DNA of 42,621 nt from Alphaproteobacteria bacterium. Lineage in GTDB: Bacteria > Pseudomonadota > Alphaproteobacteria > Rs-D84. The position numbers and the translations under genes are program-made. The stretch's first letter is position 1. Every line of letters starts with the position of its first letter. The notes below the pieces were generated by a model that saw only the letters and a program-made list of their open reading frames with translations, ran no database searches and was not told the DNA's origin. Shown piece after piece: positions 20,456-25,750 of this stretch. The stretch lies in contig JAFXGD010000033.1 of the NCBI GenBank assembly GCA_017513285.1, positions 1 through 42,621 of the forward strand. Reading direction: 5' to 3'.

Positions 20456-21367
20456 TTAATCTTTGGCCCTTGGATGGGCATGTGCATAAATATTGGATAT
20501 TTCGGCCATATTTACTTTTGTGTATAACTGTGTCGTTGACAATGACGCATGCCCCAATAATTCTTGCAGACTGCGCAAATCTGCACCACCCGCCAACAGC
20601 GCAGTTGCAAACGTATGTCGCAGTGCGTGCGGTGTCACATAGTCGGGCAGTTGCAACCAATGTCTTAATTTTTCCACGACCTTTTCTGCCATGCGTGCCG
20701 ACATTGGCAGCCCCCGCACACTGCGAAACAGTTCATCGTTCGCATCGTTTCCAAACGGGCGTAAATTCATATATTTTTCAATCGCATCCCATACGATTGG
20801 CAATACCGGCACCAATCTTTCTTTGTTTCCTTTGCCGGTAATTCTTAATATGTCGGGGTGACCGTATGTGTCACAGTTTTTTAATCCCAACGCTTCGGAA
20901 ATTCGCAATCCGCACCCAAACAGTAATACCACCAACGCCCAATCACGTGCCGCAATCCATGGTTCGTCTGCATCGATATCGGCGATTGCGCCCCGCATAT
21001 GTTCGACATCAATTGCATCAATTGCCTTGGACAGTTTTTTTATCACCTTGGGTGCCGATATCAATCCGATGGATTCGTTTTTTATACCATATTTTTTTGT
21101 TAAAAATTTAAAGAATCCACGCACTGCGGATAAAGTCCGTGCCGTTGATTTATGTGTTAAACCATTTCTTTGGCAATCGGCCAAGAACGAACGAAAGCAT
21201 ATTGTATCAATCCGTCCCATATCCTGCAGCAATGGCGGGGTACTGGTATAATTTTCATAGAACTTCAGAAAGTCTGTAATATCACGTTCATATGCCGTTA
21301 CGGTATGTTCCGAATAATGTTTTGTTTGTCCCAAGTATTCCAAAAATTCCGCAACGGCATTTTGCAT
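20456..21367 (-). CDS. xerC: Tyrosine recombinase XerC
   Basis: SEHTVTAYERD, GLRISEAL, GKGNKERLVP, TPHALRHTFAT..GADLRSLQELLGHASLSTTQLYT. Confidence 0.9.
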   Translation of the reverse strand: MQNAVAEFLEYLGQTKHYSEHTVTAYERDITDFLKFYENYTSTPPLLQDMGRIDTICFRSFLADCQRNGLTHKSTARTLSAVRGFFKFLTKKYGIKNESIGLISAPKVIKKLSKAIDAIDVEHMRGAIADIDADEPWIAARDWALVVLLFGCGLRISEALGLKNCDTYGHPDILRITGKGNKERLVPVLPIVWDAIEKYMNLRPFGNDANDELFRSVRGLPMSARMAEKVVEKLRHWLQLPDYVTPHALRHTFATALLAGGADLRSLQELLGHASLSTTQLYTKVNMAEISNIYAHAHPRAKD

Positions 21368-21375
21368 ATGTGTCC

Positions 21376-22113
21376 TTATTTAATTTCAAAAATTGCATTC
21401 ACGGTAACGGATACATCTGTGTCTTTTGCGACGATTGTACCGGCGGCGACATCGGCATTTGCACTGGTTGCCATTGCGACTTTTGACCGCATTAAATTAT
21501 ATGCGGGCTGTGGGTTATATGCGGTGTTTGTTCCATATGACACCGCCAACATTTTACCTGCTGTTTTGCTGTCACCGGCGGCCAATGCATTTGCACGTGT
21601 GCGTGCATTTTCGACCGCCAAAGACATACATTCTTCCATAATTGGTTTTAATACTTTGGCACTGGTGTACATACGCAAATCTTCGGAAAACACATTTTTT
21701 TGACCTGCGAATTTTGCCAACAAGTTTTCAATGGTTGTCGTATTATCTGCGGACACTTCGACGGCGATTGTTGTTTCAATCCCCAATATTTCAGATTTCT
21801 GCAGTTCACGATTCCACTCTGATTTTTCATATGAATTAAATTGTTTGGTTTGGATTTCGACCGGCTGGGTTTTTAAATAGTTCACAATATCGGCCATCTG
21901 TGCGGTTGCGTCCCGCATAGAATCTGCGGCATTTTGTGCCAATGCCGCAACACGCAATGTTATTGCGGTTTTATCTTTTGGTGCAGATGTCAAACATTCC
22001 CCCACAACGGATATTGTTTTTGGGGCGTCCGTTGTGCGCATTGCATCAAACACCAACGACATAACAGCGGCGGCCCCGATGACTGTACCAATCCAAATAA
22101 CGGTTTTTTTCAT
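21376..22113 (-). CDS. SIMPL/YggE (DUF541) family periplasmic protein
   Basis: N-terminal anchor, TISVVGE....PKD, AVENARTRANALA, terminal VSVTVNAIFEI; AGGAGAG RBS. Confidence 0.85.
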   Translation of the reverse strand: MKKTVIWIGTVIGAAAVMSLVFDAMRTTDAPKTISVVGECLTSAPKDKTAITLRVAALAQNAADSMRDATAQMADIVNYLKTQPVEIQTKQFNSYEKSEWNRELQKSEILGIETTIAVEVSADNTTTIENLLAKFAGQKNVFSEDLRMYTSAKVLKPIMEECMSLAVENARTRANALAAGDSKTAGKMLAVSYGTNTAYNPQPAYNLMRSKVAMATSANADVAAGTIVAKDTDVSVTVNAIFEIK

Positions 22114-22132: not shown

Positions 22133-23125
22133 TTATCCCAGCATTGCTTTTTTTACACGTTGCATCGTACGTTCTGCGATTTGTTTGGCCTGTTGTGCGC
22201 CGTGATTCAATACCGCATCAATTTCATGTTTGTTTTCCATCAATCGTTCGTATTCTGTTCGTGCGTCTTTTATTGCGCCATTGATTTTATCGAACAGTAT
22301 TGTTTTTGCAGTACCATATCCCATTCCACCACGTCGGAACATATCGGCAAATTCTGCGATTTCTGGTTCGGTGGCGAAATGCTTGTACAATTGGAAAATA
22401 GTGGATTCATCGGGGTTCTTTGATTCTTCTGGTGTTTTAGAATCCGTGATGATGCGCATAATTTTCTTTTTCAATTCATTTTCCGGTGCCATTAACGGTA
22501 TGGTGTTGTCGTATGACTTGCTCATCTTGCGTCCATCCAAACCGGGAATCAGTCCTGATTCTTTACCTATAACGGGTTCTGGCATTTTGAAAGTTTCACC
22601 ATATATTGCATTAAAGTGTCCGGCAATATCCCGTGCAAATTCCACATGCTGTTTTTGATCGGCGCCGACCGGCACGATATCTGCCCCATACAGTAATATG
22701 TCAGCCGACATTAAAATTGGGTATGTGTACAATCCCATATTAACACCCGCATCAACATCCACGCCATTTGCGATATTTTTATCCATGGCGGCTTTGTACG
22801 AATGCGCCCGGTTCATTAATCCCTTTGGTGTGACATTCATCAGCAGTGTATTTAATTGATAAATTTGTTCAACGTCGGATTGTCTGAACATCAGTGTATT
22901 ATTTAAATCAATTCCCAACGCCATCATAATTGCGGCGGCCTGATATGTGTGTTCACGCACAGTTTTTGGGTCGTATATTGTATTCAGTGCATGCAAATCC
23001 GCAATAAACATGATTGTTTTTTGTGTTTTTGCGGATTCTATCATTGGCTTTAACGCACCGATATAGTTGCCAAAGTGTGGCATTCCGGTTGGTTTGATAC
23101 CGGTTAAAACGATTTTATTTGTCAT
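22133..23125 (-). CDS. trpS: Tryptophanyl-tRNA synthetase
   Basis: TGIKPTGMPHFGNY (HIGH-like), ADLHAL, YPILMSADIL, VPVGADQKQH, KMSKS. Start re-called at ATG 23125 (AAGG RBS). Confidence 0.98.
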   Translation of the reverse strand: MTNKIVLTGIKPTGMPHFGNYIGALKPMIESAKTQKTIMFIADLHALNTIYDPKTVREHTYQAAAIMMALGIDLNNTLMFRQSDVEQIYQLNTLLMNVTPKGLMNRAHSYKAAMDKNIANGVDVDAGVNMGLYTYPILMSADILLYGADIVPVGADQKQHVEFARDIAGHFNAIYGETFKMPEPVIGKESGLIPGLDGRKMSKSYDNTIPLMAPENELKKKIMRIITDSKTPEESKNPDESTIFQLYKHFATEPEIAEFADMFRRGGMGYGTAKTILFDKINGAIKDARTEYERLMENKHEIDAVLNHGAQQAKQIAERTMQRVKKAMLG

Positions 23126-23169
23126 AATGATTACCTTTTCTGTTTTGTATTTTAATTGTTTTCTGGATG

Positions 23170-23313
23170 AAATAAAAGCCCAAAATTTAACAACGCCCGG
23201 GATACGGCGCACAATAAAGCATCAGGCGGCAACGCGCCAACATTTATTTACAGAAAAGATAAATTTGCTGTTAAACATATGCAAATTATAAAACATAATA
23301 TTTACAAAATCAA
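23170..23313 (-). promoter_or_regulatory. trpS promoter and putative ribosome-mediated attenuator
   Basis: TTGATT (23313-23308)-17nt-TATAAT (23290-23285); crossing helices GGCGCG/TGCGCC and CGCCTGATGC/GTATCCCGGGCG; weak CCCGGG/TTTGGG stem plus CTTTTATTT. Confidence 0.65.
23222..23278 (-). CDS. Putative trpS leader peptide MFNSKFIFSVNKCWRVAA (leaderless uORF)
   Basis: ATG begins 7 nt after a perfect TATAAT; Trp-Arg near the end; TGA stop; followed by alternative hairpins. Confidence 0.7.
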   Translation of the reverse strand: MFNSKFIFSVNKCWRVAA

Positions 23314-23314
23314 T

Positions 23315-23340
23315 AAAAATCCCCCAAACGGGGGATTTTT
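23315..23340 (-). terminator. Intrinsic terminator after infB
   Basis: AAAAATCCCCC-AAAC-GGGGGATTTTT overlapping the infB stop. Confidence 0.9.
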
Positions 23341-25750
23341 ATATTTGCGCACGAACTTCTTCTACTTCATAGCATTCGACCCGGTCGCCTTCTTTTAAAT
23401 CGTTATATTTATCAAAGGACATACCGAATTCAACCCCGCCGGATACTTCTTTTACTTCATTTTTTTCACGGCGCAGTTGTCCGATTTTGCCGTCATAAAT
23501 TACGACATTGTTACGCAACAATCGCACAAAAGCATCTTTTTTAATTGTGCCTTCGGTCATGCGACATCCGGCCACACGGATACCTTTGCCCACGGTAAAC
23601 AGCGCGATAACATCTGCGTATCCAATAAAGTTTTCTTTTCTTTCTGGTGCCAATTTACCGGACAAAATTTCTTTGATTTCATCTGTGATACGATAAACCA
23701 CGCTGTGATATCTGATATCGACACCATTGCTGCGTGCCATATCACGCACAGCAGAATCTGCACGCACATTAAATGCGATAATTACGGCACCGGATGCGGT
23801 TGCCAAACGAATATCGCCTTCGGTGATTTGACCGACACCTGCGGACAAGATATCAACCCCAACTTTATCCGTATTGATTTCTTTAATCATATCACTGATT
23901 GCTTCGACGGAACCTTGGACGTCTGCACGCAATACGACCGGCAGTATCATCTTTTTGTTTTCGTCACGCTTTGCGAACAATTCTTCCAACGAAGACCGTT
24001 TAACGGCATTTGCTTTATCTTTTGCCTTTTGCACACGATATGCGGCAACTTCACGTGTTTGCGCTTCGGTTTCCATGACACGTAATTCGTCACCTGCGCT
24101 GGGGACTGTGTTCAATCCCAACACGACGGCCGGTTGGCCCGGTTTGACAGATTTGACACGTTCGCCGGCCGAATTTATCAATCCACGCACACGGCCAAAT
24201 GTTTCACCAACAACGAATACATCGCCAATTTTTAATGTTCCTTGGCGCATTAATACGGTTGCGACTGCGCCCAAACCTTTTTCTTGTTTTGCTTCGACAA
24301 CGAATGCGACGGCGGGCATATCGGGATCTGCTTTTAATTCCATCATTTCTGCCTGTAACAGAATTGCTTCTTCTAATTTATCCAATCCGATACGTTTTGT
24401 TGCAGAAATTTCAACGCATTGCACATCGCCACCCATTTCTTCGACTTGCACTTCTTGTTGCAGCAAATCTGTCTTTACCCGCATTGGGTTTGCTTCTGGC
24501 AAATCGATTTTATTGATTGCGACAATGAAAGGCACTTTGGCGGCACGGATATGGTTAATTGCTTCGATTGTCTGTGGCATAATAGAATCATTTGCGGCCA
24601 CGACCAACACGACGATATCGGCCATTTGTGCGCCACGTGCGCGCATTGCGGTAAATGTTTCGTGTCCCGGCGTATCCAAGAAAGTAATCATTTCACCCGA
24701 TTGCGTTTTTACTTCATACGAAGACACGTGTTGTGTAATACCACCGGCTTCGCCTGCGGCAACATTTGCATTACGGAATGCGTCCAACAAAGACGTTTTA
24801 CCATGGTCAACGTGTCCCACAACGGTCACAACGGGCGCCCGTGGTGCCAATTTTTCTGGGTTTGGTTCACGTTCCAATTGGTCGGCATATGGTTTTACAT
24901 CGACACGTTTAACGGTTGCGCCGAATTCTGTGGCGACCAATTCTGCGGTATCTGCATCAATAGATTGATTGACAGATGCCATCATACCCATTTCCATCAA
25001 TTTTTTGATAACGTTGCCGACTTTTTCTGCCATTGCGGCGGCCAAATCTTTCACGGTGATTGTGTCACCCAATGTGACAACGTGTTCGACTTTCTGTGGT
25101 GCAGAAAATACCGCCCGTGCTTTTTCACGAAAGCGTTTTAATGATGCTTCGGATCTGCGGCGATTTGCACCACGTAATCCGATTTCATCGTCATCATCAC
25201 CGTCGCCACCCATAATGATATCGTGCAAATGAATTTTGCCGGATTTTTTAAAGTCCTTTTTATTTGCGAACTTGTTTGGGCGTCCTTCATCGTCATCGTT
25301 ATTGCGGTTTTTGCGATTTGCACCCGCAACCGCATTATTCGTAAAGACTTTTTGTGTCTGTGCCGGTTTTGCAGCTTTGACCGGTTGAGTATTTTCTTCT
25401 GTGGCATCATTGGCACTGTTATTGGCATTTTCACGTGCGGCCAACTGTTCACGAACCTGTTCGTATTCACGTGTTTCACGTTCGATTTCTGCGGCCCGTG
25501 CAGCCCGTGCGGCTTCTTCTGCGGCTTCACGTTGTCTGCGTTCTTCTTCACGTGCCTTGGCGGCGGCCAACACTGCACGCAGTTTTTCATCTGCGGCATT
25601 TTTTTGTGTGGCAGGGGTGTTTGGTTCATCCCTTAATTCTTTATTACCCGGTGCGACGACCCGTCTGCGTCTTTCGACAAAGACGGCATCGCCTTTTTTG
25701 CTGCGAACCGCATCGGTTGTAACAGATTTTCCCAGTGTCAATGTTGCCAT
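23339..25750 (-). CDS. infB: Translation initiation factor IF-2
   Basis: [48 protein letters not shown]. Confidence 0.99.

Follow-up and report, generated by a model that had tools for sequence, protein, structure and literature searches.

Upstream of trpS, the gene for tryptophanyl-tRNA synthetase in Candidatus Enterousia, a gut alphaproteobacterium with a genome of about 1 Mb, we describe a conserved and almost certainly leaderless upstream open reading frame (uORF) that carries a single Trp codon, and we think it probable that this leader is a leader-peptide attenuator, which senses charged tRNA-Trp and controls trpS mainly at translation. The leader lies in a 42,621-nucleotide stretch of DNA (assembly GCA_017513285.1, contig JAFXGD010000033.1, positions 1 to 42,621), called the window below; all coordinates are those of the window unless another locus is named, and the leader and its neighbouring genes are on the minus strand. 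In the mechanism that we propose, RNA made from a promoter P1 would start at the AUG of the uORF or 1 nt before it, and uORF codons 7-10 would pair with the Shine-Dalgarno (SD) sequence of trpS about 115 nt downstream. Because these anti-SD codons pair with the SD, P1 transcripts that extend past a weak terminator would be translationally silent for trpS. When Trp-tRNA is scarce, a ribosome would stall with UGG (codon 14) in its A site, and its trailing edge, together with a second ribosome queued behind it, would cover the anti-SD, so that the SD would be free and TrpRS would be made. When Trp-tRNA is plentiful, ribosomes would come off the RNA at the stop codon, after which the anti-SD:SD helix would re-form. 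The weak terminator would limit read-through from P1, and a putative second promoter P2 on its 3' side would probably give basal, uORF-independent expression of trpS.

A conserved and almost certainly leaderless reading frame with one Trp codon

The uORF consists of 18 codons and a TGA stop (MFNSKFIFSVNKCWRVAA; 23278-23222, with the ATG at 23278 and the TGA at 23224-23222), and its only Trp codon, TGG at 23239-23237, is codon 14, the proposed sensing codon. P1 lies directly in front of it, with a -35 box TTGATT (23313-23308), a 17-nt spacer and a -10 box TATAAT (23290-23285) that ends 6 nt before the ATG; it agrees with a sigma-70-like promoter at 10 of 12 positions and is the best such match between 22500 and 24000. 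The initial annotation of this DNA, made from the letters of the window, had described a promoter, a uORF with its TGG, GC-rich stretches and a GGGC followed by a T-tract (23181-23169) on the minus strand, and all of these are where it had placed them.

For comparison, trpS loci were taken from 22 genomes of the same genus, from eight genomes of other genera and from the 80 best public relatives; the close relatives are public metagenome-assembled genomes from animal guts. A locus entered the leader set if it had an upstream open reading frame, 14-20 codons long, in which Arg or Gln comes directly after Trp, and frame 0 is therefore open by selection. Of 102 same-genus trpS loci, 73 have a module built in this way, which leaves 68 distinct sequences after removal of five duplicates (the counts below refer to these 68 unless another total is given), and in none of the eight loci from other genera. 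The remaining 29 same-genus loci contained no comparable leaderless small open reading frame lacking Trp, only the 3' end of rpsD or unrelated frames.

The uORF called in the initial annotation is thus a real one, conserved in length, frame and Trp position. It encodes 18 amino acids in 55 sequences, 19 in seven, 16 in five and 17 in one, and ends with TGA in 31, TAA in 25 and TAG in 12, and the two alternative reading frames are open in just 6 and 14 sequences. The Trp codon, also predicted to be conserved, is present in 68 of 68 and stands fifth from the end in 54. In divergent lineages Trp has been retained or even added, with two Trp codons in loci L007 and L094 (..VWWRR, then the stop codon) and in L015 (..KRWQRSW, then the stop codon). 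P1 is kept as well: 66 sequences have a -10 box (A2 and T6 present) at a distance of 4-9 nt from the ATG, and in 61 this distance is 6 or 7 nt, while TATAAT is perfect in 49 and the -35 box matches at least four of six positions in 57. Since a gap of 6-7 nt leaves no space for an SD sequence, the uORF is almost certainly leaderless, as had been proposed, with a transcription start that we infer from the promoter geometry.

At the level of the peptide, Trp-Arg is invariant, and conservation is high in an Ile-Phe-Ser block but lacking among the N-terminal residues. The tail that follows Trp-Arg varies (AA, VA, DA, HA, GA, CAR, or a stop after one residue) with the CGCC nucleotides kept, which indicates that the constraint acts on the RNA and not on the peptide.

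When 150 genomes of the genus were sampled with R1, a covariance model built from the leader, 62 of them gave a match (46 of the 107 that are of high quality), nearly always once per genome, and R1 found no match in 150 other genomes across the class; in the source genome the leader is single-copy. As far as the sequence family recognised by R1 is concerned, the trpS leader is genus-restricted, a statement that does not extend to analogous leaders elsewhere. In a quick trpS tree the loci with the uORF are confined to a single derived portion of the genus, and the state changes at least 4-6 times, a pattern that fits, but does not prove, one gain and several losses of the module. One relative, L041, deserves separate mention: judged from printed stretches, its P1 and whole uORF (about 1320-1410) appear identical to 23222-23313 of the window. 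Yet past the stop codon the two differ (short versus long form), their TrpS proteins share only 78% identity, and they are placed in different clades of the trpS tree. Such a pattern suggests recombination with a breakpoint directly after the uORF.

Pairing with the trpS ribosome-binding site and sister leaders

uORF codons 7-10 (AUCUUUUCUG) are conserved as nucleotides, third positions included, and are complementary to the ribosome-binding site of trpS, CA(A)GAAAAGGU. In the window the anti-SD segment extends over codons 6-10 (23263-23249, with the core AUCUUUUCUG at 23260-23251) and pairs with 23144-23130, the trpS ribosome-binding region, whose core GAAAAGG is at 23140-23134; the distance from the uORF to trpS is 96 nt. 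The initial annotation missed this pairing, as it did an invariant TAnnnT on the 3' side of the terminator. The same pairing is present in the minimum free energy (MFE) fold of the window leader. When the part of the uORF 5' of Trp was hybridised with the last 28 nt before trpS using RNAduplex, with z-scores from dinucleotide shuffles, the window gave a duplex of -15.4 kcal/mol (z = -3.8), and over the 68 sequences the duplex energy averaged -11.1 kcal/mol and z averaged -2.2, with z below -2 in 41 of them. In a partner-swap comparison, each uORF paired better with its own SD (-10.74) than with those of other species (-9.10; z = -6.9, with none of 300 permutations as good).

The two sides of the helix also change together. 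Loci L100 and L105 have the compensated version AUCUUUGC/GCAAAGGU, a distinct duplex of 16 bp is formed in L007 and L094, and an altered SD flank is met by a matching anti-SD in L098 and L102 and again in L075 and L078. Over the alignment, 84% of the cells of this helix are paired, and changes on both sides occur in six of its ten pairs. For the three helices of the leader taken jointly on alignment A1, 82.3% of the cells are paired against 79.8 ± 0.4 in shuffled data (0/500), a value that falls to 36-58% when the 3' partners are slid by 1-3 columns, and double changes occur in 12 pairs, a number reached by 4 of 500 shuffles.

In most sequences the anti-SD stops 11 nt upstream of UGG, a conserved spacing that suits coverage of the anti-SD by one stalled ribosome or by a disome. 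The effect of a ribosome on this arrangement was modelled by partition-function folding of the full leader with the nucleotides under the ribosome masked, using footprint sizes from general knowledge. With no ribosome, the median probability that the SD core is unpaired was 0.01 over the 68 sequences. It was 0.46 with a ribosome stalled at Trp (a rise of more than 0.2 in 37/68) and 0.56 with a disome, that is, with a second ribosome queued behind the first (51/68), as compared with 0.017 with a ribosome at the stop codon (5/68). In silico, then, a stalled but not a terminating ribosome disrupts the anti-SD:SD duplex; stalling at Trp and the direction of regulation are themselves inferred.

Scanning the source genome for leaderless small open reading frames revealed sister leaders at two further synthetase genes. 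The hisS gene (locus L111 on contig C83, 661-1953, plus strand; PF13393) is preceded on the same strand by a uORF at 523-582 (MVKARLFFVELHHARAGEY), which ends in ..LHHARAGEY and begins 6 nt after a TATTAT box, a geometry that again points to a leaderless frame. Of 16 same-genus hisS loci with usable upstream sequence, 15 retain His-His or no less than one His; a co-varying GC hairpin begins at the second His codon, and an extended -10 element, TGATATAAT, lies downstream. The anti-SD signal is weaker at hisS (-7.5 vs -6.5, z = -2.4, 5/500). At thrS (locus L137 on contig C61, 2001-268, minus strand), the putative leaderless uORF MNLFKCFFTTTTTTPAGV (2139-2083, minus strand) follows TTGATT-17-TATGAT by 7 nt. 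A run of 3-7 Thr codons and then an ACCCC/GGGGU hairpin were found in all 19 usable thrS loci, including two from other families of the order, and a TTGCGG-17-TATAAT-like promoter stands downstream of the uORF. Neither the hisS nor the thrS leader has a clear terminator. The common layout of the trpS, hisS and thrS leaders (P1, uORF, GC hairpin, P2, SD), as read from their predicted elements, shows a repeated design, and the presence of cognate codons at three different synthetase genes gives strong support to amino-acid sensing.

Hairpins, a probable second promoter and other possible modes of control

Between the anti-SD and the SD the leader holds further conserved elements. Hairpin A:B (23238-23225; median -5.6 kcal/mol) joins GGCG of the Trp-Arg codons with CGCC of the last codons; its four G-C pairs are kept in 62-67 of the 68 sequences, and a fifth pair is formed in 12, with five double changes. 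A U-run follows about 11 nt after it, and a role as a pause hairpin is possible. The initial annotation had instead paired the Trp-Arg codons with GCGCC past the stop codon, but that partner occurs in only 14 of 68 sequences (CGCC in 24 of 68), and the conserved CGCC partner is within the reading frame. In the alignment of trpS upstream regions, accordingly, the expected uORF with Trp proved to be conserved, and the helices originally drawn around it did not. An inner hairpin GCGCC/GGCGU (23210-23193), which is the variable insert of the long-form leaders, is variable or absent in relatives.

The terminator is represented by its 3' arm UUUGGGC (23184-23178) and the U-tract UUUUAUUUC (23177-23169), a conserved block; across relatives, the block AUUUUGGGC-UUUCAUUU is nearly invariant. 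In relatives its GGGC pairs with a GCCC about 14 nt past the stop codon, with the compensatory variants GUCC/GGAC, GACC/GGUC, GCCU/AGGC, GCAU/AUGC, GCACAA/UUGUGC and GCCA/UGGC and with double changes in three of four pairs, so the hairpin beside a U-tract that had been annotated between the uORF and trpS does exist. This variable-region helix was judged by alignment counts, the partner-swap comparison being flawed there by empty segments. In the window, CCCGGG (23201-23196) and, at the stop codon, GCCUGA are the alternative 5' partners. A pairing between the stop-codon region and the 3' arm was attractive in MFE folds and was rejected as a candidate, as it showed no co-variation (z = +1.4); in L046 and L032 the terminator change is compensated in the other arm, not in the stop-codon region. 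The terminator is weak, with a median of -5.7 kcal/mol (-8.35 if the stop-codon region joins), compared with -18.1 kcal/mol for the terminator of the upstream infB gene. Taken alone, the fold of the window leader is not special (z = -1.18; 26 of 200 shuffles as good).

Beyond the terminator stands the hexamer TAAAAT (23154-23149), the putative -10 box of P2, with a predicted -35-like TTTATT within the U-tract (23176-23171). Its T, A and final T are invariant in all 68 sequences and its middle positions vary (TAAAAT in 50, TAGAAT in five, TACAAT in three, others in the rest), which is the pattern of a -10 element. The hexamer is 24-26 nt before the trpS ATG in 49 of 68 sequences. At a distance of 16 nt it is preceded by a TTNATT, which falls within the U-tract. 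TAnnnT is thus probably a second trpS promoter; as the hexamer is still present in relatives without the uORF (L006, L014), P2 may be read as the ancestral one. In L014 and L021, which have no uORF, a hairpin and U-tract still directly adjoin the conserved -10-like TAAAAT before trpS. The overlap of the terminator with the -35 region may be older than the uORF module.

Several observations weigh against translational attenuation as we propose it. The SD of the window itself responds poorly in the folding model (unpaired probability 0.00 when free, 0.04 stalled, 0.30 with a disome and 0.00 at the stop codon), and with the footprint size generally assumed, the end of the anti-SD is at the very edge of the stalled ribosome. 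The terminator is located between the anti-SD and the SD, so control in cis requires read-through, and transcripts from P2, if it is active, lack the anti-SD and would dilute regulation; moreover, the proposal assigns no role to the conserved GGCG/CGCC hairpin. Four loci (L002, L003, L044 and L049) have no significant anti-SD. RNAalifold returned no consensus pairs from the 68-sequence MAFFT alignment, for which reason the helices were named by hand and counted on the alignment, and the co-variation statistics take no account of phylogeny. As regards RNA, the one metatranscriptome run covered 15% of the sampled words and gave short contigs of relatives only, uninformative on RNA ends; a 300-nt contig spans the 5' end of trpS, the leader and sequence beyond P1, shows no start or end and could be DNA.

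Among other explanations, the classical transcription attenuation of the trpL type fares best, although we regard it as unlikely. Here, stalling would free an antiterminator segment and allow read-through of the hairpin and U-tract at 23201-23169, and otherwise transcription would terminate. Such a mechanism would suit a leader frame in which Trp is followed by Arg, a first hairpin whose 5' arm includes the Trp codon, and a downstream hairpin with compensatory changes directly before a U-tract; the U-run about 11 nt past the first hairpin is where one would expect a hairpin-dependent pause. However, ribosome-mask folding and pairing tests over the relatives found no conserved antiterminator exclusive with the terminator. 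When transcripts of 67 sequences up to the U-tract were folded by MFE with ribosome masks, a helix abutting the U-tract was predicted in 54/67 with no ribosome, in 61/67 with a ribosome stalled at Trp and in 48/67 with a ribosome at the stop codon (42/67 in all three states). A stall that selects an antiterminator, as the initial annotation had it, is therefore not supported by the folding model, and the trend is if anything reversed. Transcription attenuation is further opposed by the scarcity of the Trp-Arg/GCGCC pairing (14/68), by the lack of co-variation between the stop region and GGGC, by the weakness of the terminator, and by the want of a clear terminator in the sister hisS and thrS leaders.

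A slightly less likely alternative is that the P1 transcript is mostly a terminated and translated small RNA of about 105 nt, the anti-SD of which represses in trans the trpS mRNAs made from P2, and that Trp-stalled ribosomes mask the anti-SD and lift the repression. A related possibility is an inverted attenuation, where termination before P2 relieves promoter occlusion. Control of this kind would suit a P1 that is near consensus and yet is separated from the gene by a terminator, with an invariant -10-like hexamer beyond it. Folding predicts the terminator in most ribosome states, the co-variation of anti-SD and SD is equally consistent with action in cis or in trans, and a precedent is found in Sinorhizobium, where rnTrpL, the RNA of the terminated trp attenuator, is reported to act in trans (PMC6614838). 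On the other hand, the terminator is weak, 10-13 bp with many A-U and G-U pairs make a weak duplex for an interaction in trans, and the arrangement at hisS and thrS, with a uORF and then P2 without a clear terminator, favours read-through and action in cis. If control in trans were true, the trpS leader would form, together with the hisS and thrS modules, a group of riboregulators gated by ribosomes, through which an amino-acid auxotroph with a genome of about 1 Mb adjusts the levels of its synthetases.

Finally, it is most improbable that the product of the uORF is a small peptide with a function of its own, or a TnaC-type arrest peptide, sensing free tryptophan and not tRNA charging. The invariant Trp-Arg and highly conserved Ile-Phe-Ser would agree with this at the peptide level, but both blocks are conserved as nucleotides down to third positions (AUC UUU UC; UGG CG), and there is an RNA partner for either of them. 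A TnaC-type peptide would be expected to have conserved residues at fixed distances from the stop codon; in the uORF, both the identity and the number (0-4) of the residues that separate Trp-Arg from the stop differ among relatives, the N-terminal residues lack conservation, and the hisS and thrS leaders bear their own cognate codons.

Known attenuators, the host and its genes

Translational attenuation by the trpS leader has its closest counterpart in mycobacteria, where ribosomes stalled on leaderless poly-Cys small open reading frames were shown experimentally to block a structure that sequesters the downstream ribosome-binding site (bioRxiv 10.1101/834739, Canestrari et al.); the comparisons made here with this and the other cited systems are confined to the available passages of the respective reports. 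In both cases the small frame is at the 5' end of the transcript (in Enterousia as judged from geometry), its codons match the amino acid sensed, and an RNA duplex sequesters the downstream ribosome-binding site. The stalled ribosome blocks that duplex, and control is translational and not by termination, which for Enterousia is predicted in silico; in both, too, the design recurs at several loci, here trpS, hisS and thrS. The two systems differ in that a Cys tract is used in mycobacteria and a single Trp codon here, and in that the target there is a biosynthetic operon and here an aminoacyl-tRNA synthetase gene of an auxotroph. Furthermore, the anti-SD of the trpS leader is 11 nt upstream of the sensing codon rather than within it, and the leader of Enterousia, an alphaproteobacterium, also includes a GC hairpin and a weak terminator, along with what may be an internal promoter.

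Leaderless leader peptides are also described in Deinococcus deserti, with 14 of them before tRNA-synthetase or amino-acid genes and transcription attenuation as the predicted mode of control (PMC4007540). Like the uORFs of Enterousia, they have the transcription start at the leader AUG, are enriched in the cognate residue and stand before synthetase genes such as cysS; they belong to another phylum and have no sequence relationship with the present leaders. As for trpS, leader-peptide attenuators were predicted in Streptomyces (PMC1262725), and in Caulobacter a translated small leader coding sequence is present on the trpS mRNA, reported in the passages available without a mechanism (PMC4117421). 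With these and other classical trp-type attenuators the Enterousia leader shares a short frame having Trp and then Arg near its end, a regulatory codon in the 5' arm of a hairpin, a terminator-like hairpin before the gene and the regulated gene trpS itself. It departs from them in a uORF without an SD, in one Trp codon instead of two or three, in the anti-SD pairing, in the absence of a conserved antiterminator from the relatives compared, and in matching no Rfam leader family.

In Firmicutes, trpS is controlled by the T-box riboswitch, which responds to tRNA-Trp charging by direct binding of the tRNA. The gene and the signal would be the same in Enterousia, whereas the sensor here would be the translating ribosome. 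Rfam searches of the window gave no Trp leader and no T-box at E values up to 10, and at the leader no other family either, with gathering thresholds or up to that E value, in agreement with the initial annotation. Two Phe_leader matches (27 and 23 bits, cut-off 55) were discarded, both being on the infB terminator; the sole match at gathering thresholds in the window was a tRNA gene at 2773-2843 on the plus strand (63.3 bits). Our literature search found no description of this trpS leader in Enterousia or in the order Rs-D84. By these comparisons the leader would work like the mycobacterial leaderless translational attenuators and fall outside every Rfam leader family.

The regulated gene, trpS (22133-23125, ATG at 23125), encodes 330 amino acids (PF00579, E = 1.8e-53). 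Upstream of the leader is infB (23339-25750, IF-2 domains), the intrinsic terminator of which (23342-23313, a 13-pair stem followed by a T run) is predicted to isolate the leader from infB transcription. Downstream, trpS is followed after 19 nt by a SIMPL/DUF541 gene (21376-22113), and this after 8 nt by a gene for a XerC/D-like tyrosine recombinase (20456-21367). From these spacings both genes probably share an operon with trpS, and control of them by the leader might follow. A SIMPL/DUF541 protein and a XerC/D-like recombinase are odd partners for a synthetase gene.

The source genome is a 1.10 Mb assembly, 96% complete, with 43% GC. The lineage of the order Rs-D84 is reported, in the passages available, to have reduced genomes without amino-acid biosynthesis (PMC12306168). 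In keeping with this, the Trp_syntA, IGPS and Chorismate_bind families had no match in the 96% complete genome, with 14 of 14 controls positive for each family; with no trp pathway families found, a Trp leader is left without a biosynthetic operon to regulate.

Leaderless leader peptides with cognate codons are thus kept at no fewer than three synthetase genes (trpS, hisS and thrS) of a gut lineage that is uncultured and has genomes of about 1 Mb, and these uORFs would escape gene finders. The 68 natural variants and their compensatory changes are a ready mutational series on how translation could be gated by one hungry codon together with an anti-SD that lies 11 nt upstream. For the biology of the organism, these leaders suggest that the supply of imported amino acids is sensed by translating ribosomes and wired directly to the expression of the synthetases, with no regulatory protein.

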